DNA from: Squalus acanthias
Lineage: Eukaryota
Assembly: GCA_030390025.1 (NCBI GenBank)
Contig: CM059434.1
Coordinates: 111,166,001 to 111,230,000, forward strand
Direction of reading: 5' to 3'
DNA length: 64,000 bases
This document shows positions 2,113 through 64,000 of the stretch, in pieces. The translations under genes were made by a program, and so were the position numbers. Position 1 is the first letter of the stretch, and each line of letters starts with the position of its first letter. The notes beneath the pieces are model-generated. The model saw only the letters and a program-made list of their open reading frames with translations. It did not search any database and was not told the DNA's origin.

Positions 2113-2183
2113 CTCCTTGCTCACACAGCTGCTGAACCAGGGCATCCTTGAATATGATTTGACCCCTCTGTGTAGCCGTAGCC
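2113..2183 (-). CDS. RELN: Reelin coding exon equivalent to human exon 4 (71 nt): (M)ATATQRGQIIFKDALVQQLCEQG
   Basis: Acceptor ttttaccag (AG at 2185-2184), donor G|gtaaga (GT at 2112-2111); peptide near-identical to human reelin [23 protein letters not shown]; phase 2 start completes the ATG begun by the previous exon. Confidence 0.97.
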
Positions 2184-3323: not shown

Positions 3324-3469
3324 GGAATTTCCTTGGGGCTTCTTCCTCTCCGCCACTGTGACTTTGGCGGAAGTTCAGTGGAAACCCCATTTACGAGCAT
3401 AAACGGGATTTCTGACGAACCTCCACCAAAGTTACGGCAGCGAAGAGGAAGAAGTCCTGAGGAAATTCC
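3324..3469. mobile_element. Palindromic MITE (whole element an imperfect inverted repeat)
   Basis: GGAATTTCCT..CTTCTTCCTCT..CTTTGGCGGAAGTTC..GAAACCCC pairs with GGGATTTC..GAACCTCCACCAAAG..AGAGGAAGAAG..AGGAAATTCC; ORFs on the two strands are near mirror images. Confidence 0.8.
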
Positions 3470-4984
3470 AATGGTAGATTTCTGAAAGCTAATGTTTCCA
3501 CAGGGGTACACATTAATAATGGCTCCAGCCTGAACAGAATCTTCTTGTATACAGAATCACCAGTCTTTGCTCACTGTAGGAACCCACTTGTAAGCTCTCA
3601 TTAATTATTTAACAGTCGGCCATTATTTCTAACCACTATTTATAGAGAAGTCCACAAATAATAATTACTTCAAAGAGCTGTTTGGATAATTACAATAACA
3701 CACAATAGTTTAGGATGGCAGGGCTGGTTATTTATGCTGGTTAGATTCTTGGATATGAACAATTAACTGATTAACAGTGATAATTATCACAGTGGGCATG
3801 CCAGCTGCAAAACAGCAAAGAAAAGAAAAATGATCCTTATTCGTTTATTCAACAACGCAGATCGCCATAGTGACAAGCAGTGGGAATTCTGGGCCTCAAC
3901 TAAACTCTGTAAAATGTACTATGTAAAAGGTACATATACAGAACAAATATGTACTTAATATACATCACAAACCTAGGGACAGTCACATTGTGGACATGTG
4001 CAGAATGTCATATAAAGAGAAAAGTAAATATATTACATTTTGGTAATTAAACTTTTGTTCTTAGTTTATTGCTACAAATGGAAAGTGCTGTTTCAAATTC
4101 ATGTTGCACTCATCTATTTTCTAATATTTGGCAACCGGTTTGAGTAGTACTTGAGTTTCATCAAAACCAAATGTTGAAACACAGAATAAGAAGCATATGT
4201 TGCTATGGAGGGTGACTGAGATTACCCATGTACGAATAGTACCTCTTAATCTATCTCCCCTTCTCTCCTACTCTTTTTTTTAATTCAAGGTGGTGTCTGC
4301 ACTATTGACCTATACTTTTGAATAATAAAGCAAACTGAAAAGATACAAAAACCTTCAGTCAAACATTTGAATTATTAAGGCACTATCTGAGGACCACCAG
4401 ATCTTGCATAGGGGAACAGTACTAATGTATCAGTGTGTTGGGATTTACAAATGCATTCATATCAAGGTCAAATCTCAGAATTCCATCAAAAAACTACGTC
4501 TCTTAACTCCTGTGATTTTCTAAATGACAGGATACTGCACTTTTGTCTCATTCATGGCTTTTGCACATGCTGGAATAGAATGATTTTTTAGGAATGTTGA
4601 GGTCAGACTTCCACTGTAAGTTCTTTAAAAATCAGCAGCCTTGTCACAATGGAGCTGCGAGTTGCTTTCTGTTTGAGTTACATCAATGAATGATCCAGAG
4701 TCAGCATTGGTAAAAAATCCTCGATTTTGCTTCACACTAAATTACTGAAGTGACAGAAAACAGTGAACATTGTGCAGCACAATTGGAGAACTATTTGGCA
4801 AAAGTATAGGTTTCAGCATAATTTATATCATCCAGCCTTGTATTTCTAAACAAATGAAAAAAGATTTGCCAAACATTTTTTCATGCTAGCAGTGCCCCTT
4901 TAATTCTGATAGCCGTTAAGAGCATTCTAAGATTACTTTTTTTATCAGTACTGTCATAGACATCGATGGATTGTAACACAGTTG

Positions 4985-5145
4985 TCTACTAATGGCTGCA
5001 GTGACTGAATCCGCAGGCTTTTCTCTGTGATAGGCGTCTGTGAGCTGATTAAAGCTGTGGCCATCAACTCATGCTTTAATCAGCTCACAGTCGCCCTAAT
5101 CCACTACAGAACCTGCATCTTTAGATATCATAGCTACATGTAGGA
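4985..5145. repeat. Long hairpin / decayed palindromic element
   Basis: Perfect 18-bp stem 5038-5055 / 5073-5090, 17-nt loop, extended by GGCG/CGCC and weaker outer arms. Confidence 0.7.
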
Positions 5146-5506
5146 GCATCGTAACTGGCAGCATAGAACAGGTCTCTCCTCAATAGGTGCCGATTATCTC
5201 AATCAGCACTGTCGAACAAAGGCTGTAAAATTTCTGCCTAACATTTCACTGCATTATCATGTATGCTTTCTTTGTCAATCAGATTGCACCCTTTCATCAA
5301 TCTATATACTAATATCCAATTTTATACTTGAATTGTGATATGAAAGCTAAAGGAGTAACATTATACACAATGACTACATTGGTACTATCCTATACTGGTA
5401 GTGTAACATTGTGACATCAAATTAGTACAGCACTTGTACCACACTGGTATTATACTACACTACATTAATACAACACATGAGTCTGATTAAGTTGTTGAAG
5501 GTTTAT

Positions 5507-5837
5507 GAAAAGAACAAATTTGTATTACATAGTACCTTATCACAAACAGAAAGGAGATGAATGATCAATTAATTGGTTTTTGGAGGTGTTGATTGAGGAC
5601 ATTGGGAGAGCTCCCTTCAAACAGTGCCATGGGATCTTTTACGTCCACCTGTACAACAGGAACAGGCAGATGGGACCTCAGTTTAACATCTCATCTGAAG
5701 GATGGCTTCTCCAACAATGCAGCATTCCCTTAGTACTGCAATGAAATGTCTGCTGAGATAATGTGCTTAAGTTTTTCAGCGGGACTCTCAACCTTCTGAT
5801 TCATACGCTACAGTGCTACCAATTGAATCCAGCTGAT
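5507..5837 (-). mobile_element. Deu-domain tRNA-derived SINE (SacSINE1-like)
   Basis: Reverse complement of Deu-core motifs (GTGCCATGGGATCTTTTACGTCCACCTG, TTTAACATCTCATCTGAA); matches copies at 26030, 33835, 52722, 56578. Confidence 0.75.
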
Positions 5838-6302
5838 GCTATAGCTCATTGAGGCTATTACTAGACTTTACTAAGAATGTACCATTTAAAGTACTTACTC
5901 TGACACTAAAGCATTGATGTTGGGGTACATATATTCCAATCCTGACATTACAGGAATTGCACAGGAGTAAACACACCACATTACTAGTACTTACCCTCCA
6001 ATAAAGAATTAATACCTTTATTTAAGGCTTTAAAATGAATATCTCCACCTGTTAGCAGCATACTATAGCTCAATGCTTGACATTCAAGGAACAAGAGATA
6101 TGAAGTTATGTGAATCAGTTGCTTCACATTTCAGGTCTTATTCATTTAACAGAGGACAGACTTCTGTTTGGCTTATTGAATGTTGGTTTTCTGTTATTTG
6201 CAGCACTTGACTGTATGGGAGGGATGGCAATGTGTAATACTTCATGTCCTACCACGACAGGGAAAGGATATTCATTCATAACACAAATAAGCTGCAGTTA
6301 TA

Positions 6303-6981
6303 TAAGACCGCATCTGGAATACTGCATACAGTTTTGGTGTCCATACTTAAGAAAAGACATACTTGCTCTCGAGGCAGTACAAAGAAGGTTCACTCGGTTA
6401 ATCCCCGGGATGAGGGGGTGGACATACGAGGAGAGGTTGAGTAGATTGGGACTCTACTCATTGGAGTTCAGAAGAATGAGAGGCGATCTTATTGAAACAT
6501 ATAAGATTGTGAAGGGGCTTGATCGGGTGGATGCGGTAAGGATGTTCCCAAGGATGGGTGAAACTAGAACTAGGGGGCATAATCTTAGAATAAGGGGCTG
6601 CTCTTTCAAAACTGAGATGAGGAGAAACTTCTTCACTCAGAGGGTAGTAGGTCTGTGGAATTTGCTGCCCCAGGAAGCTGTGGAAGCTACATCATTAAAT
6701 AAATTTAAAACAGAAATAGACAGTTTCCTAGAAGTAAAGGGAATTAGGGGTTACGGGGAGCGGGCAGGAAATTGGACATGAGGCTGAGTTCGGATCGGTC
6801 GAGGCCCTGTGGGTGGCGTAGCGGGCCCAGGGGCTGAGTGGCCGGGTCCTGCTCCTACTTCTTGTGTTCTTTAGATTTGAGGTGAGGATCATTTCAGCCA
6901 TGATCTTGTTGAATGGCGGAGCAGGCTCGAGGGGCCGATTGGCCTACTCCTGCTCCTATTTCTTATGTTCTTATGTTCTTA
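6303..6981 (+). mobile_element. 5'-truncated CR1-clade LINE (ORF2 C-terminus plus 3' UTR), young
   Basis: Open frame RPHLEYCIQFWCPYLRKDILALEAVQRRFTRLIPG...RRMRGDLIETYKI...FFTQRVVGLWNLLP; (TTCTTATG)n tail; possible TTATA target duplication. Confidence 0.93.
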
Positions 6982-7680: not shown

Positions 7681-7880
7681 ATGATCAAATACTCTATGGG
7701 ACACAATGGTTACTATACTACTGGGGCAGCAAGCCAAAAATGAATAGTGTAATTGGTTGAATATTCTGGTTTCGGGCTAAGGGAGTACTGAAGAGGTGAT
7801 GGAAACTCAGGTGATGAACGTGCTTAAAGCCATTAATCACAAGTGTGAATTATATGACTGTTCACGTGGACAGTGTATAT

Positions 7881-8098
7881 AAACAGAAAATGCTGGAAAT
7901 ACTCAGCAGGTCAGGCAGCATCTGTGGAGAGGGAAACAGGTTAACTTTTCAGGTCGATGACCTTTTTCTGACAAAAGTTCATTGACTTGAAACGTTAACT
8001 CTGTTTCTCTCGCCATAGATGCTGCTTGACCTGCTTAGTATTCCCAGCATTTTCTGTTTTTATTTCAGATTTCCAGCATCCGCAGTATTTTGTTTTTG
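7881..8098. mobile_element. Penelope-like element remnant arranged as inverted repeat (pLTR-like)
   Basis: AAACAGAAAATGCTGGAAATACTCAGCAGGTCAGGCAGCATCTGTGG... followed by its reverse complement; same sequence at 25531; decayed hammerhead cores at the centre. Confidence 0.75.
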
Positions 8099-17478: not shown

Positions 17479-17614
17479 ATAAAATTCACGCAGCCTGTTC
17501 CTGCAGGTGGAGCGATCCAGACAAAGCTGAGATTTGTCTGTGGAAGGTGACTGACGTGAGATGCTACAACACTGCACATGAACTGGGATCCGAAAGGTTG
17601 ATCAGACATGAACC
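17479..17614 (-). CDS. RELN: Reelin coding exon equivalent to human exon 3 (136 nt): (G)[44 protein letters not shown](M)
   Basis: Acceptor ttttttgtgttgttgcag (AG at 17616-17615), donor AT|gtgagt (GT at 17478-17477); matches human [45 protein letters not shown]; not in the ORF track. Confidence 0.97.
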
Positions 17615-23535: not shown

Positions 23536-25530
23536 AGTGGTAATGTCCGCAAGAGAAGTAAAACAGGAGACATGGGACCACTGAACTGATCAATCAATAG
23601 CGATAGAGGCGTGGGTTACAGACATGCTGACAATTTACAGTTGCACATTTGTTTTAATAGACGAGTTAAAGTATTTCATTTTTCTCTCAGTGAAACAAAG
23701 CATCAAACAGATTTGTGTAAATTAATTTTGACGTACTCGAGCCCCAAATTACACAAACTCAGTGGGATTTCTTTGTGAAGTAAGTGTCTGCAAACTCCAC
23801 CGGTTGCTGGCGATGGCCAAATGATAAAAACACAGCTTACATTTCAATTTTTTTTCCTGTTGAGTAACATATTTTTGCCGGTAAGTGTAATTATTACAGA
23901 CTGTTTTCTCCTGGTAAACCTACATGGAACATCTGCGCGTGTCATGAATTTGTAACAAATACATCAGCAATCCACAGGAGTGTTACCATCATGACTGTGG
24001 GAAAGTAGTTTGTTATAAAGAGATCAGAAACCTTTTACAGAAAACAAATTGCACCACAATGTACTGTAATCTGATTGGTTATCTGAAGGGCAGTTGAACT
24101 CTATTGAGCACACCTAATGCTGTAATAATGTTGCCATGTCATACTGAATTTCAACACAGCCAGCGGGGGAGAAGTTGGATGTGATAAAATGGATAATCAT
24201 CAGTTAATATATACAAAAATGTGGAGTAAACTTAACATTTTAATGCCTATTGTTGGTTCCACGTCATTTTCTTCAGTTTAAGTTGATTTTAGTTGTGTAA
24301 AATACAGTATTCTGATTGGCTGAATGTTGCACATTAAACTTAATACTATGGCTGGCTCTAGGTCTTCTCTTGTCGTAGGCTGCATCACAAACTACACACT
24401 AATTGATAGGATATACTATCGGGTAAAACTGAGGATAGGCAGATTACTTAGTGTACTCAATCTAGACTTTCAAAAACCTTTAACACAGTTCTGTATGAAA
24501 GATTGCTAATTAAGCTTAAAGTGATGGGGATATAAGGTAAAACCTAGAAATGGATAGGAAATTGGGTGAAGGATAGGATGCAGTTTGCACTTGTTAGAGA
24601 TGTGACACTGGGATGGGGATGGGATTACTAACTGAGGTGACGAGTAATGAAAGCTGGGATTACTATTTTGAATGCCACGGCTGACATTACGGATGTCTAG
24701 TTACGGGTGAATTTGAAACCAATTTTGGGGTATAAATTGACTTGTTGCTTAACATGTCCATTGACTGCAAAGCAGCAATGAATAAAAGAAATTGAAAGTT
24801 GAATTACATAGCCAAAACATTGGAGTCCAAGTAAAACTATATAATGCCCTTGGTCAGACTATACCTTGAGTATTGTCTCCACTTCTGTTTACTGAGACAC
24901 AGGGAGAAATTTAAGCACTGAAGGTGGTAAAAGCCACAAGTCTGATCCCAAGAGTCAGAGTACTTAGGAGGAAACTTGGAATTTTCAATCTTGAAATGAG
25001 GCTATTGAAAGGGACCTCAGAGTGAGTATATTAGATAATAAACAGTATAGAAAAAGATGGGTATGATTTTCTGCTGGAGTTACAGCAGTTCCCCAGAGTA
25101 GCTCCAGTGGAATGTGAAGCAAAAATCTTCAGGAGCCAGTCCACCATTTTCCACTGGAAGTGACATCAGATATAAAATACATCTGCCTATATACATATGA
25201 CGTATTCCCATCATTTGCATCTTAGCTGCGCTGGGTTTAAGGAATACCAGTGTGTTCTAGCCGCTAAAGTAACTATGGGTAGTGGGAATAGGTTAAAAAT
25301 TAAAAGTCCAGAAAGCCTATGCGATCAATCATAGGTCATTGATTACATAGATTAAAGTGATGTCCAAAAAATATATAATTTTTTATTTTTATTTTATAGT
25401 CTGTGTCCAGACCCGAGGCTAGCAGCCAAGTTACATTGCAGCAGGTGTCCGGGGCCTGAAATAGCTATTTTCTAATAGCTCTTAGGCAGGCTCTTGAGTG
25501 GAGGTCAGGAAGTCCACCAAAACTATGCAA

Positions 25531-25826
25531 TAAAAACAGAAAATGCTGGAAATACTCAGCAGGTCAGGCAGCATCTGTGGAGAGAGAAACAGAGTTAACG
25601 TTTCAGGTCGATGACCCTTCGTCAGAACTGGAAAAAGCTGGAGATCGAACAGGTTTTTAAGCAAATGTAGGGGCAGGGAAAGGGGGGAGGGGAGGAAAGA
25701 ACAAAAGGGAAGGTCTGTGATAGGGTGGAAGGGAGGAGAGAATAACAGACAAAAGGGATGGTGCAAGGCAAAAGGAGATGGTAATGGGACAAGTTAAGAA
25801 ACAAAAGATGGCTCCAGATGGAAGGC
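25531..25826 (-). mobile_element. Penelope-like element 3'/pLTR fragment
   Basis: Near-identical to the left arm of 7881-8098, plus a purine-rich (plus-strand) continuation; carries a hammerhead motif typical of Penelope pLTRs. Confidence 0.75.
25593..25629 (-). ncRNA. Minimal type I hammerhead ribozyme motif
   Basis: Minus strand AGTT-CTGACGA-AGGGTC-ATC-GACCT-GAAA-CGTT-AACT: intact CUGANGA and GAAA core, stem I AGTT/AACT, stem II GGTC/GACC, palindromic ACGT stem III. Confidence 0.75.
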
Positions 25827-26029
25827 AGGAGAGATTAAGAGACATTATGCAAAATAGCCCGAGCCACACATATTAGTCGAGGCCAAGAGCACAACCATTG
25901 TGTTGGATGGACCTCATGCCATGACCAAGATGTGCTGGCATTCTGCAAAAGTGGAAAATTCCTGCCAATAAATCCAGAACATTACTTCAAAATGGTTCAA
26001 ACTGCCAGAAATAAAATTAGACACATACA

Positions 26030-26434
26030 AAGAATGAAGTTGCATTCTATAGAAATGTCTTAAAGTGCTTCACACCATTTGAAGTGCAGTCATTACCATG
26101 TTGGTAAATGTGGTAGCCATTTGTGACAAGAGTCCCACAAAGAACAAGATGAACGACCAGATCTGTTTTTTTGTTTTCTTGGTTGAGAAAAATGTTGGCT
26201 AGGAAACACAGAACTTCCTGTTCTTCAAAAAGTGCCATGGGATCCTTAACATCTACCTGAGCCAGGAAACAGATTGTGGTTTAATGTGTCATCTGAAAGA
26301 CAACACCTCTGACAATTAAGCACTCCCCCAGTACTGCATCCAAGTGTCATCCTAGATTATGTGCTCAAATCCTGCAGTGTGAGATAAAACCACAACTTTG
26401 TCTCAAAGGTGCTATGAACTAAGCCAAGCTGACA
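26030..26434 (-). mobile_element. Deu-domain tRNA-derived SINE (SacSINE1-like), near full length
   Basis: GTGCCATGGGATCC, CATCTGAAAGAC, CAGTACTGCA, CTAGATTATGTGCTCAA, head AGCCAAGCTGACA. Confidence 0.8.
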
Positions 26435-33834: not shown

Positions 33835-34222
33835 CGTCCCAAAGTGCTTCACAAGTAAATTAACTTTGAAGCAGTCACTGTTGTGATGTAGACAAGCACA
33901 GTAGCCAATCTGCACACAGCAAGATTCCATAAACAGCAATTAGGTAAATGGCCAATCATTTTTTTTTTTAAAGTGATGTTGGTTGAAGGAAGAATTTTGG
34001 CCAGGCTAGAGAACTTCCATGGTCTTCTTCAAATGATGCCATTGGATCTTTTACATTCACCCGAGGGGGCAAATGAGGCCTTGGCTTAACAACTCATCTA
34101 AACATTGGCACTTCCAACAGTGCAGCACTCCCTCAGTACTGCATTGAAGTGTCATATGTGCTCAAGTCTCTGGAATGGAGATTAAACCCACCTACTCCTG
34201 ATTCAGAGGCAAGAGTGCTACC
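33835..34222 (-). mobile_element. SacSINE1-like SINE
   Basis: CAGTGCAGCACTCCCTCAGTACTGCA...AGAGTGCTACCACTGAGCCAAGG (reverse-complemented tRNA head). Confidence 0.85.
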
Positions 34223-34249
34223 ACTGAGCCAAGGCGGATACCTCAGTCA

Positions 34250-44816: not shown

Positions 44817-44927
44817 CAAGACCAAATGAGCCAGGACCACTGACACTTTGTGGGGCTTGGATGCTTGTCGATGTGTAGAGACCAGTCACCAGTAAGCCAT
44901 CAAAGTATGTGCTCGTGGAAATAGTCA
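44817..44927 (-). CDS. RELN: Reelin coding exon equivalent to human exon 2 (111 nt): (V)[36 protein letters not shown](G)
   Basis: Acceptor ctttccttttatgtatttcag (AG at 44929-44928), donor G|gtaagt (GT at 44816-44815); matches human [38 protein letters not shown]; phase 1-1. Confidence 0.97.
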
Positions 44928-52721: not shown

Positions 52722-53154
52722 GGTGTCAGCCTTGGCTCAGTAGTAGCACTGTCAGAAGGTTGCAGGTTCAAGCCCCATTCTTGAGCACAATCTCAGCTGA
52801 CACTTCAGTGCAATACTGAAGAAGTGCTGCACTGTTGCAGGTGCCATCTTTCAGATGAGATGTTAAACCGAGGTCCCATCTGCTCTCTCGTGGACATAAA
52901 TGATCCCATGACACTTCAGAGAAGAGCAGATGAGTTCTCCCAGTGTCCTGGCCAACACTTATCCTTCAACCAACATCCCTAAAATAGTTTATTTGGTCAT
53001 TTATCAAATTGCTGTGTGTGGGACCTTGCTATGCGCAAAGTGACTGCCACATTACTATAGTGACTACACTTCAAAAGTACTTCATTGGCAGTGAAGCGCT
53101 TTGGGACGTCCTGAGGATGTGAAAGGTGCTATATAATTACAAGTTCTTTCTTTC
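52722..53154 (+). mobile_element. SacSINE1-like SINE, near full length
   Basis: A box TGGCTCAGTAGT, B box GGTTCAAGCCC, Deu core TTTCAGATGAGATGTTAAACCGAGG..GATCCCATG, L2-type tail. Confidence 0.88.
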
Positions 53155-53745: not shown

Positions 53746-54574
53746 TAGTATACTGTTGCCAACAGAGAGAGTTCATATTCAATGCTTATAAAACAAATGA
53801 ATATCTTAGACTGCAATATTTTTTTATTAAACATTGCCGTTCCATACTTAACAATGCAAATTAATTACTTTGGGATCACACTGTTACTCATGAAACTAAA
53901 AATAAAACATTATTCAAAAAGAGTAACAGACAAAATGGAATTTATTGCCTCCCCACTGGAATGTTATATATAAAATCAACATTTCACAATTTTTTTTGAT
54001 TATTGGATTCTGTGTCGATGTCACCATAGTGCAGATCTTGCATACTTTGTCTAACAAATGCAATAAGTTCCAGGTTAATAGATTCAGGATATGTTCTAGA
54101 ATACCAGCAGCATTCAATCAGCTGAACAATATTAAACATTGCTGATTTTTTTATTAAGTGAAATTGCCCCAGGCGGTTTCTGCCAAAAGCTAATAAAACT
54201 CTTCACAGAAAAATTGTTCTCAACACACTAATCATATCAGGATCCTGCAATAAGTACTGTAAATCTCATCGATTTGATGAAACTCAAATTTTTGTATGTC
54301 TTTAATAAATATAATTTGTTGAAATCATAAAGGTTAATTATTCTTGAGGGAGTTTAGCTTATTGGAATGCTTAAATAATAAAATGAATGAGTTATGTCAA
54401 GAACAAATTAAAATCAGTCCAGGTTATTTCTAATTTAGATATGGTTATGCTGGGCCCTTGTAATTAAGATAGATAGAGTGCTAATGAATTACTCGGATGT
54501 CAGATTATATAGGGGCCTTATAACTGGGCAGAAATAGGTCACAAAAGGGTGATTGAAGACACTTTGGCTGTCCC

Positions 54575-54675
54575 TGTGTCCCCTTTATCCCCAAAAGTTT
54601 TGAAAATCAAATCTACCGTCACTTTTCTACAGTGGATTTGAATTTCAAAACTTTTGGGGGACCAAAAGGGACACA
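54575..54675. repeat. Long hairpin (31-bp stem, 28/31 paired, 9-nt loop, plus outer TGTGTCCC/GGGACACA)
   Basis: 54589-54619 CCCCAAAAGTTTTGAAAATCAAATCTACCGT versus 54629-54659 ACAGTGGATTTGAATTTCAAAACTTTTGGGG. Confidence 0.85.
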
Positions 54676-56164
54676 ATTACAACATTTATGTCTGTTGTGA
54701 ATTTCTGGATCAATCCAAACCTGCACAGTTTCAGAGCACATGAAAACTTTTGTTAACTTCTGCATCCTTGCAAATGAACACAAAGAACTATGAATTTCAG
54801 ACCATTCATTTCATTAATACCAGGAGGCAAAGTGGACGTTCAGGCATGTTAACCTAGAAATGTAACATTTTGTAAATTTCAAAGTAGTATGGATGACTAA
54901 TGGTATAGTAGGCTGATATACCAGCTTGCTGAGTCACAGTACCTCGGCTGCCCGTGCACCTCTGGGTAACTGCTTGCAGAATGGCTTTGGCAGAGGCCTT
55001 GAGCTTCCTGTCCTGTCAGTCAGGGGATAGGCACAGAGGAGAGGAGCTGGGCAAACCTTTTTAATGCCAATATTATAAAACACAGTTATTTGGACGCAAT
55101 AAGATAAGCAGACTTTAAAAAATGAACTACAACCTGTTAAAAATCAAGTAAATACATGATGACATTTGCTATGGTTAAGAAAAAAAGCTGTCAGACGGGA
55201 AATATCACAGAGCAGAGGATCATCAAGAGTGTTGAAAACTGCTATTTTTATCTGCATCTTTCTCCTCTGCTTAAGGGCTCACACCCCAAATGCTTCAGAT
55301 ATGATGCAACACAAGGCTCATTTGTGGAAGTAAGTTTTAAAAAGGGCCTTGATTTTGCAGCCTGGTAATATTGAGACCTCCATCAACAGCCCACATGGAT
55401 ATTTAATAAAGAGATGATTGAATTTTTAACTAATTCTAACTCAAAGGCATCCTTTTCATAAAGTCACAGGATTAACCACAAACCAAGATGAGTGGTAAAA
55501 TAGATTAAGACAGTGAGTTGTACTCTCTCTCTAACAACTAGAGGCTCAGTCCATTCCAGAAATGGAATGAGCAAATTTCTAAATAAAAGGCATACTTATT
55601 TATTTATGGATGTAGCCTTGTAAAATATTGTGAAATGTATCTCTTTGTCATGACTAAAAGGTTCTGATGACGTTATGGATTACGAGAATAAAGCTGGAGT
55701 GGTTTAAATGCCAACTAGATTGCATTACATTCTCCGAGCTACCTTTTATTTCTAATAAAATATACTGCAATTGGTGAGCTATTCCCTTTCAATGACATCG
55801 GGTTTATACCCTACATTATTGTAGTAAAAACACTATTTAGACACCGGGGGGTAATATTCACCATCACCGCTTGGGTGGTAAACTCGCCCGTTATAGAACC
55901 CACCCAATTTATATTTCCAATGAATTCATACGTGACAGGAAGAAGTTATTTTACAACAAAATAAAATGGCTGTACTTATTACATGACAGGAAGTGATGTT
56001 CCAGCAGGATGGGCAGGTCCTCAATATATATTATATATGTACCCTTCCCCCGAACAGGTCATGTGATAATTTTACTTTTTAAATGTTTATAATAATATAC
56101 ATTTATACAGTGATCCTCATGCGGGTGAAAGTCTGAGTATTTTACTGGGGGGGGGGGGGGAGAA

Positions 56165-57590
56165 GTGGACAATGAACAAGAAGGAATTTAACAAGGGAAG
56201 AGAAAAAGAAACACAAGGCACGGTTAATGGCTGTTGAAGGCTATTATAGCAAGATAAAATGGCTTTGGAAGAGAATTCTTGAACGTATGCATAAGCGCTG
56301 TAAGATCGGTGTCCAAAGGTGGGGAACAGAGTTGGGGATGTAGGATAGAGAAAATTTCCCAGATAGACTGGAGTTAGGCCATGGAAGGCTTTAAACAAGG
56401 ATTAGGACCTTGAAATCAATTTGCTCGGGCACAGAGAATCAGTGGAGTTTGGCAAAGGATGAGGAGGAGGGCGGGGGAAACATAAGTTTGCAAGATTTTG
56501 AGTAGCAGAGGACTGGCCGCAGAGTTCTGGATTAGCTGAACTTTGTGAAGGCAGGGATGGGGAGGCTGGTAAGAGAAAAAAGAAAGAACTTCCAATGATA
56601 TAGCTCCTTTCACAACCTCATGATGTCCCAAAGCGCTTTACAACCAATGAGGTACTCTGAAGTGTAGTCACTGTTGTAATGCAGGAAGCACGGCACCCAA
56701 GTTGCACACAGCAAGGTCCACAAACAACAAGCGAATAAATGACCAGATCATCTGTTTTAGGTGTTGGTTGAGGGATAAATATTGTTCAGGATACCGGGTT
56801 AACTCCCCTGCTCTTCTTCAAATATTGCCGTGGAATCTTTTACGTCCATGGGCCTCGGTTTAACATCTCATCTGAAAGACGGTACCTCAGACAGTGCAGC
56901 ACTCCCTCAGTACTGCATTGAAGTGTAAGCCTAGATTATGTGATCAAGTCTTTGGAGTGGGGCTTGATTTAGAGGCAAGAGTGTTACCACTGAGCCAAGG
57001 CTGACATCTTGAATTTGAGAAATTAATGCTTGATGTGATAAAGGAGGGTGAGGCTTCAGGAGCTGTTGGTTTAGGGAAGGGCATAATCAGGCAATGTTCA
57101 GGAGGTGAAAGAAGGCAATCTTCGCGCTAGGCTATACTAGATGTGGGGCTTAAACCGGCGTTTGGAATTAAACAAATTGCTGAGACTGTGCACCACTGGG
57201 TTTAGCCTGAGTGAGCAGCCAGGGAGAGTGACAGTCAAAGCCAAAAGTGTTCAAGGTGTGGGCAAAACGCTGAATACGGCTTCGATGTTGTTGACATTAA
57301 GCTGTAGGAAATTTACTCTCATACAGGAGTGTTGGACGGATAATTGAATAGTACAGAAACAGTGCTATTCAATGGTGGTGGCAGGGAGGTACAGGTTAGA
57401 TGTTATTGGCATACATGTGGGAAATGACTGTGCTTGCAGATGTAGTTGCTGTGGGGCAGCACATAGGTGATAAACAGGAGGGGACCAGGGATTTAGCTTT
57501 GGGGCACACCAGAGATGACCATGTGAGTTGGAGATAAAGTGAATGCATAGGGACAAGTAAGAGTGAAACTGAGTGGCGGCAAAGAGGAGG
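56165..57590 (-). mobile_element. Decayed L2 LINE interrupted by a SINE
   Basis: FKAFHGLTPVYL and LHKVQLIQNSAA peptides; RT-like remnants at 57365-57556. Confidence 0.7.
56578..57006 (-). mobile_element. SacSINE1-like SINE, near full length
   Basis: Reverse complement of 52722-53154, ending CCACTGAGCCAAGGCTGACA. Confidence 0.88.
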
Positions 57591-63350: not shown

Positions 63351-63632
63351 ATTGACATCCTAAGTCCTATCGTTCCAGCAGCTCAGGAATCATTATATTC
63401 CACACAACATTCAACCAGTTCTATCTAGCATCTAAGCTCCAAATATGTTACCTTCCACACCCTTCCTCTTGCTTACATCTTCAATATATCGAAATAAGTA
63501 CTGAATTTCCCTCCAATTTAATTATCTGATCTAACATTATTCTAGCCGATCTACCAGGCACAAGTTTTTGATTCTAAATGCATGCTCAATATTCCTCATG
63601 ACTTTTGTTGTTCTCTAGCTATACATTGATAC

Positions 63633-64000
63633 TATAGGCCTCCAAACAGTAGTGGTAATGTAGGGGATGGCATCAAACAGGAAATTAGAGATGCATGTAA
63701 CAAGGGTACTACAGTAATCATGGGTGACTTTAATCTACATATAGACTGGCCAAACCAAATTAGCAATAATACTGTGGAGGATGAATTCCTGGAGTGTGTA
63801 CGAGATGGTTTTTTAGACCAGTACGTTGAGGAACCAACTAGAGAACAGGCTATCCTAGATTGGGTATTGTGCAATGAGAAGGGGTTAATTAATAATCTTG
63901 TTGTGCAGGGTCCTTTAGGGAAGAGTGACCATAACATGATAGAATTCTTCATTAAAATGGAAAGTGAAGAAATCCAATCCGAAACTAGGGTCCTAAATCT
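63633..64000 (+). mobile_element. CR1 LINE ORF2 apurinic endonuclease region, open to the window edge
   Basis: Uninterrupted frame from 63633: YRPPNSSGNVGDGIKQEIRDACNKGTTVIMGDFNLHIDW...FLDQYVEEPTREQAILDWVL...PLGKSDHNMIEF (YRPP, GDFN, SDH motifs). Confidence 0.93.

Follow-up and report, generated by a model that had tools for sequence, protein, structure and literature searches.

The window, by which we mean the whole 64,000-nucleotide stretch of Squalus acanthias contig CM059434.1 analyzed here, carries exons 2-4 of the reelin gene, RELN, on its minus strand. A splice-site scan of that strand gives 20 candidate exon frames, 3 of them reelin-like (111, 136, and 71 nt), which we take to be reelin exons, with the gene context supporting the 111-nt one. 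The 136-nt frame has a sub-threshold match to the Reeler family (E = 0.003), and an 11,846-nt contig from a probable RNA run of another organism includes it as letters 593-730, as expected of a third exon. A genome search with the Reeler family missed the RELN 5' exons; splice-site scanning found them. All 21 of the 21 reelin-subrepeat matches in the genome are just downstream of the window on the same strand as the RELN exons, and exon 1, encoding the signal peptide, starts 12 kb upstream of the window, at a distance of 317 kb from the C-terminal exon. Because exons and subrepeats are on the minus strand, the hammerhead motif considered below is in RELN intron 2 (27,202 nt) and sense to the pre-mRNA, just where the initial annotation had put it, 19,220 nt past exon 2 and 7,982 nt ahead of exon 3.

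The motif is read from minus strand 25629-25593 as AGUU CUGACGA AGGGUC AUC GACCU GAAA CG UU AACU, 37 nt, and has all of the hammerhead core positions, C3 U4 G5 A6 N7 G8 A9 / G12 A13 A14 A15.1 / U16.1 H17 (Table 1). It had been described as an intact minimal hammerhead, and its letters, core, stems, and GUU cut site are all as described; what the description overlooked is that stem II closes with G10.1-U11.1 in place of the canonical G-C, although the positions still pair. Helix III is absent, while the palindromic 15.2-16.2 permits a dimer, and since there is no loop, a helix III needs a second molecule. A search with the Rfam hammerhead models had been proposed as a check; the Rfam scan of the window gives 7 matches at E ≤ 5, none of them to a hammerhead family, which we would expect for a motif without helix III. 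Matches in the window to the bare pattern CUGANGA..GAAA do not exceed chance, with 12 versus 7.15 ± 2.76 in shuffles. Even so the motif is not a chance occurrence, because the exact 37-mer is present 4,744 times in the 3.7-Gb genome (2,275 + 2,469) versus 0 for the reversed control.

Table 1. Features of the window, in order of position
Feature	Position	Strand	Remarks
RELN exon 4, 71 nt	2113..2183	-	Splice-site scan; identity presumed
Inverted (head-to-head) pLTR stub pair of the same family, RELN intron 3	7877..8067	.	Junction inside hammerhead
RELN exon 3, 136 nt	17479..17614	-	Splice-site scan; sub-threshold Reeler match
Direct repeat TTGCATA, second copy, 3' junction	25524..25530	-
pLTR stub, the 3' end of a 5'-truncated Neptune-like Penelope element, noncoding	25529..25847	-	Genome matches
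Splice-acceptor-like tract in pLTR	25575..25598	-	Branch-point-like UUAAC over predicted cut, pyrimidine tract, CAG ending 25575
Minimal type I hammerhead motif	25593..25629	-	Whole motif, read from sequence
U17	25597	-	Predicted cut 25597/25596
Palindromic ACGU (A15.1-U16.1)	25601-25598	-
GAAA	25604-25601	-
Stem II, 5/5 bp, 3-nt loop	25617-25613 with 25609-25605	-	Closing pair G10.1-U11.1
Extra A between A9 and 10.1	25618	-
Core CUGACGA	25625-25619	-
Stem I, 4/4 bp	25629-25626 with 25596-25593	-	AGUU/AACU
Direct repeat TTGCATA, 7 nt, 5' junction	25846..25852	-	Overlaps element end by 2 nt
RELN exon 2, 111 nt	44817..44927	-	Splice-site scan; reelin identity presumed, supported by gene context

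The window has 2 more pieces of the same family, joined in RELN intron 3 as the inverted pair. Of these, the minus copy (7965-7877, sense to RELN) begins within stem II and is without CUGANGA, and the plus copy (7966-8067) carries an altered G8 and a broken stem II but keeps the 30-40-nt tail, so that neither has an intact core, in agreement with the earlier statement that the other copies in the window have lost it. Elsewhere in the window, long imperfect hairpins at 3324-3469 and 54567-54683 give sub-threshold matches to miRNA families and are likely small inverted-repeat transposons. A dispersed SINE-like repeat family is present in both orientations (5600-5841, 26208-26374, 34012-34243, 52786-52890, 56801-57009, and others), and there are LINE reverse transcriptase or endonuclease frame fragments at 6104-6778 (+), 63630-63998 (+), and 53785-53402 (-), presumably CR1/L2-like.

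The stub carrying the motif is ~320 bp long and differs at 8/261 positions from the majority consensus of 30 family copies, with the 37-mer unchanged. The other 39 top genome matches to it are 95-97% identical. The paired TTGCATA is likely a target-site duplication. The first 31 nt of the stub (25847-25817 minus) exactly match a segment from inside the pLTR, of which the stub itself has an altered version further on, and this looks like a template jump or a mini partial tandem. Across the family, insertions have variable 5' ends and coinciding 3' ends, with or without a tail of about 30-40 nt, and an opposite-strand pLTR piece is found at 10/30 loci. The family has the 5' truncation, partial tandems, inverted 5'-truncated copy, and optional tail of the EN+ Penelope-like element (PLE) insertion structure, a pattern described in the part of PMC8557442 used here.

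Every long family copy read has a broken ORF. It contains a YIDD reverse transcriptase (RT), with an RVT_1 match at E = 4 × 10−7 in 1 of 3 fragments scanned. ESM Atlas places the C-terminal part with GIY-YIG proteins (0.96-0.97); Pfam and NCBIfam give no GIY-YIG match for that part, and a PDB sequence search with the endonuclease part gives no significant match. Related long copies have a CKRRRCNTC linker and a VYC..LYIG motif with C..C and 2 later H, and hence all of the features of Neptune, namely an RT followed by a C-terminal GIY-YIG, a CX2-5CxxC linker, and a CCHH motif. A CX4CxxC linker is missing from Penelope/Poseidon according to the sections of PMC8557442 that treat it. The CKRRRCNTC linker points to Neptune as the clade rather than Penelope/Poseidon, a placement made by linker.

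At 4 of the 6 near-full-length loci read, 2 motifs flank the RT/GIY-YIG region, 3,207-3,224 nt apart, which bears out the proposal that this is the minimal type I hammerhead of a Penelope-like retroelement. Such a layout, with a motif on both sides of the ORF, would allow a double hammerhead. In this family the ORF apparently starts ~170 nt past the motif, and the window stub ends ~115 nt short of that start.

Alongside the PLE minimal hammerheads of Cervera and De la Pena (2014), as given in the sections of PMC4209133 compared here, the window motif shares the type I topology, the lack of helix III and loop 3, the palindromic 15.2-16.2, the extra nucleotide between A9 and 10.1, the 4-bp stem I, the position in both pLTRs, and the occurrence mostly as single dispersed copies from truncated elements. 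It departs from them at G10.1-C11.1, which those sections call "highly conserved" though it is no descriptor requirement; in our set of 87 core-intact copies, which is biased to the window's subfamily, the pair is G-U in 73, A-U in 13, and G-C in 1, and the palindrome CG is kept in 80. Copy number is also higher here, at 53,963 versus ~9,000 in Xenopus tropicalis and 4,000 in the coelacanth, with search patterns that differ, and the same sections do not name sharks. The Anolis carolinensis Poseidon element PAc (Frangieh et al. 2024; relevant sections of PMC11167929) has the same pLTR-ORF-pLTR layout with a hammerhead near the ORF start, an RT plus GIY-YIG protein, and a tail of 30-40 nt in some copies only; the window's family differs in having the Neptune-type CX4CxxC linker and an apparent ORF start ~170 nt past the motif, and the window copy in being a stub without an ORF. 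By all of these traits except the family-wide G-U closure, the window motif is a PLE minimal hammerhead, with cleavage as a prediction. Our literature search turned up no publication that treats a hammerhead in reelin or in shark PLEs, and the supplements to PMC4209133 and to a bioRxiv preprint with one chondrichthyan genome may list the family.

How singular the window copy is can be judged from counts. Core-intact motifs, searched as the core pattern with the family's spacing, number 53,963 genome-wide versus 21 in the control, or about one per 69 kb. The RELN gene body has 5 sense and 4 antisense core-intact copies of the family where 2.3 are expected per strand, a density about 2 times the genome average on both strands, and a second exact copy of the 37-mer lies further along RELN, also sense. 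Being one among 53,963, and one of 5 sense copies versus 4 antisense, the motif is no special feature of RELN. Of 11,417 flank-anchored matches, the first 30, a sample that leans to young copies, include 10 exact and 25 core-intact ones. A control that adds 11 downstream letters is matched by 5,759 of the 11,417, but we set it aside because these letters differ between subfamilies. RELN introns also contain a second minimal-hammerhead family, outside the window at contig positions 110939724-110939732 and 110966356-110966359, and this family recurs at 111257422, upstream of exon 1. It has stem I UCAC/GUGA, G-C closure, and an AGCU palindrome, and it forms back-to-back inverted pairs, with 2 motifs sense to RELN.

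Both a GUU triplet and a non-G-C pair at 10.1-11.1 would be expected to reduce hammerhead activity. Folding predictions for the 37-mer alone put the core into an extended hairpin at -9.1 kcal/mol (z = -1.3), no better than shuffles, and the monomer fold having stems I and II is predicted at p = 0.0007-0.002 over 25-37 °C (0.002 at 37 °C). In longer context stem II would persist, with pair probabilities of 0.59-0.99 in 3 contexts, and stem I would not. The double hammerhead is predicted to cost 11-13 kcal/mol more than two monomers and 14-16 more than the best dimer, in nearest-neighbor energies that leave out tertiary contacts, Mg2+, and proteins. For the second RELN family, with its G-C closure, the predicted dimer cost is lower, at ~5 kcal/mol.

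Related ribozymes have been tried experimentally. The consulted parts of the respective papers describe a PLE minimal hammerhead that was inactive as a monomer and weak in cleavage as dimers (PMC4209133), an anole PLE hammerhead that cleaved only with the PLE protein, was dispensable for insertion in vitro, and had no RNA-seq read ends at its site (PMC11167929), Xenopus retrozyme dimers of which 1/9 cleaved (bioRxiv 2026.07.22.740005), and GUU among the cleavable triplets (PMC3138052); those of PMC544870 give no rate. For the window motif, the nearest core-bearing sense partner is 33.8 kb downstream, past 2 exons, with a mismatch in stem I. The suggestion of the initial annotation that the intron could be cleaved via a dimer or in trans is not borne out as a likely event; on its own strand the motif has no partner within 34 kb. 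Family contigs in the probable RNA runs cross the predicted cut, though contigs reveal neither strand nor ends, and among the contigs listed from four probable RNA runs none that is unique to RELN adjoins the stub.

Whether selection acts on the inserted motif can be approached through its paralogous copies. Private substitutions, those seen once, which we take to be mostly post-insertion changes, are equally frequent in the core (4/300) and the flank (18/1339, p = 1.0), and similarly so in the RELN region (3/160 versus 28/912, p = 0.61), all of these being small counts. A core no better conserved than the flanking pLTR had been named beforehand as the outcome that would speak against function, and for the private changes in paralogous copies that is the outcome. 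When all differences are counted, the core has 6/300 versus 52/1339 in the downstream pLTR (p = 0.12), and in the 16 RELN-region copies it is better kept, 3/160 versus 62/912 in the flank (p = 0.012). Because the difference is gone among private substitutions, we read it as selection in the source elements. The shared variants fall in three places, namely loop II, N7, and 10.1, where the G-U and the A-U form both pair, and subfamily-wide changes leave the core untouched. From these small counts we infer that the fold is kept by selection in active source elements and decays freely once inserted. At a divergence of 8/261, the neutral probability is 0.17-0.30 of finding the 37-mer intact and 0.51-0.62 of finding the core plus palindrome intact.

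The insertion has some age. Contigs of related organisms B and C bridge the 5' junction of the stub, running from unique flank 40-41 letters into the element, and D is borderline at 31 letters. Flank divergence from the window ranges from ~3% (B) to ~5% (D; 31/642). These junction reads suggest that the insertion is likely common to the three related organisms and predates those splits. In the four DNA runs, the locus-specific contigs of B, C, and D stop short of the motif, and no empty-site joint is present among the 15 joints listed (of which there are 497 more). The shared insertion is the sole result that leaves room for function.

The window motif is thus, in our judgment very probably, an inactive and neutrally decaying passenger at the end of a truncated Neptune-type Penelope copy in RELN intron 2. 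In the full-length element, pairing of the ACGU palindromes would join the 2 pLTR motifs, 3.2 kb from each other, into a double hammerhead, which the element's own protein probably helps to process the retroelement RNA, and selection would preserve the core only in such active elements. In the window copy, reverse transcription apparently halted after ~320 nt, leaving one motif and no partner. A lone motif would be unable to close helix III, and its core is predicted to fold into a hairpin, from which it follows that RELN pre-mRNA would be cut rarely if ever. Should a cut occur now and then, it would fall 8 kb and 19 kb away from the exons on either side and would likely be of little consequence. 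Set against the passenger reading are that the insertion is not brand new, its junction being bridged in B and C and borderline in D, that the 37-mer is unchanged in a stub that has itself diverged, that the all-difference count has the core better kept (p = 0.012 in the RELN region, 0.12 otherwise), and that RELN has about twice the average load of core-intact copies (5 and 4 versus 2.3).

The rival that survives best, though we consider it unlikely, is bystander cleavage, in which the protein of an expressed element and its pLTR RNA pair in trans with intronic copies, so that small fractions of RELN and numerous other pre-mRNAs are cut as a side effect, without selected function. Partners with a compatible ACGU exist in the tens of thousands genome-wide, the probable RNA runs contain family RNA (4,059-6,264 contigs per run over the whole stretch), a PLE protein activates a PLE hammerhead in vitro (as reported in part of PMC11167929), and retrozymes are under-represented in Xenopus introns (from part of bioRxiv 2026.07.22.740005). 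However, all long copies read have broken ORFs, many family RNA contigs run through the cut site (contigs not giving the strand), and sense copies are not depleted in RELN, at 5 versus 4, which are small numbers. The protein-binding site of the anole element is in the first 172 nt of the ORF, according to the same part of PMC11167929, whereas the window stub ends ~115 nt before the apparent ORF start. A grander version, to which we give still less credence, would have the Neptune-like family as ~54,000 mutually compatible core-intact half-ribozymes, with an unusual G-U/A-U closure of stem II, that form a transposon-switched system of transcriptome-wide RNA cutting. Once the protein of the element is expressed, sense copies in introns would serve as both trans partners and substrates, with the five RELN sense copies included. 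If it were true, introns should hold too few sense copies, and RNA from gonad or brain should contain cyclic-phosphate ends.

A domesticated intronic ribozyme controlling RELN processing, like the hammerhead in the amniote RECK intron, we hold to be very improbable. Its attraction is an intact core in sense orientation, in an insertion apparently common to four organisms, and conserved intronic hammerheads do have precedent. The amniote type I hammerheads of RECK and other genes, as described in the sections of PMC6155905 compared here, share with the window motif the intron position, the host-sense orientation, and a presumed derivation from retroelements, but they are conserved across birds and mammals and have tertiary contacts, whereas the window motif is minimal and one of thousands of identical repeats. 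It is the same as 4,743 other copies, including the second sense one later in RELN, with neither a helix III nor tertiary loops gained, and neutral decay suffices for its intactness. Unlike the RECK type, it has no sign of locus-specific selection. An architecture of that type able to cut as a monomer was considered and rejected: helix III, impossible for a lone motif, has no loop here, and the active-like monomer fold is predicted at p ≤ 0.002.

Equally remote is the notion that any effect of the stub on RELN comes from a cryptic 3' splice site rather than from a ribozyme. The tract, called from the splice-acceptor consensus, has its UUAAC 21 nt ahead of the CAG and is sense to RELN, and 2 contigs of one probable RNA run terminate precisely at 25574, which would fit splicing into this AG at one of the family's copies. 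Spliceosomal introns are known in PLE pLTRs (by the portion of PMC4209133 compared), and the tract may be that pLTR intron. Against it, the AG is kept in 59/70 scored copies and is GG in 11/70, no good donor lies downstream, no RELN contig with the stub is among the rows listed, and no stub-exon 3 joint is among the joints listed (there are 32 more). Full-length copies have a second acceptor-like tract, which is cut off in the window stub.

A regulatory ribozyme specific to RELN would, if true, matter for brain development and for ribozyme domestication, and the evidence is against it. Under the passenger reading the gain is small: one more Neptune-like family, from a shark, joins the Penelope elements already known to carry minimal hammerheads, and the load that such a family places on a genome becomes visible. 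Its tens of thousands of copies make possible a comparison of sense and antisense intron insertions as a test of whether PLE hammerheads cut host transcripts in vivo.
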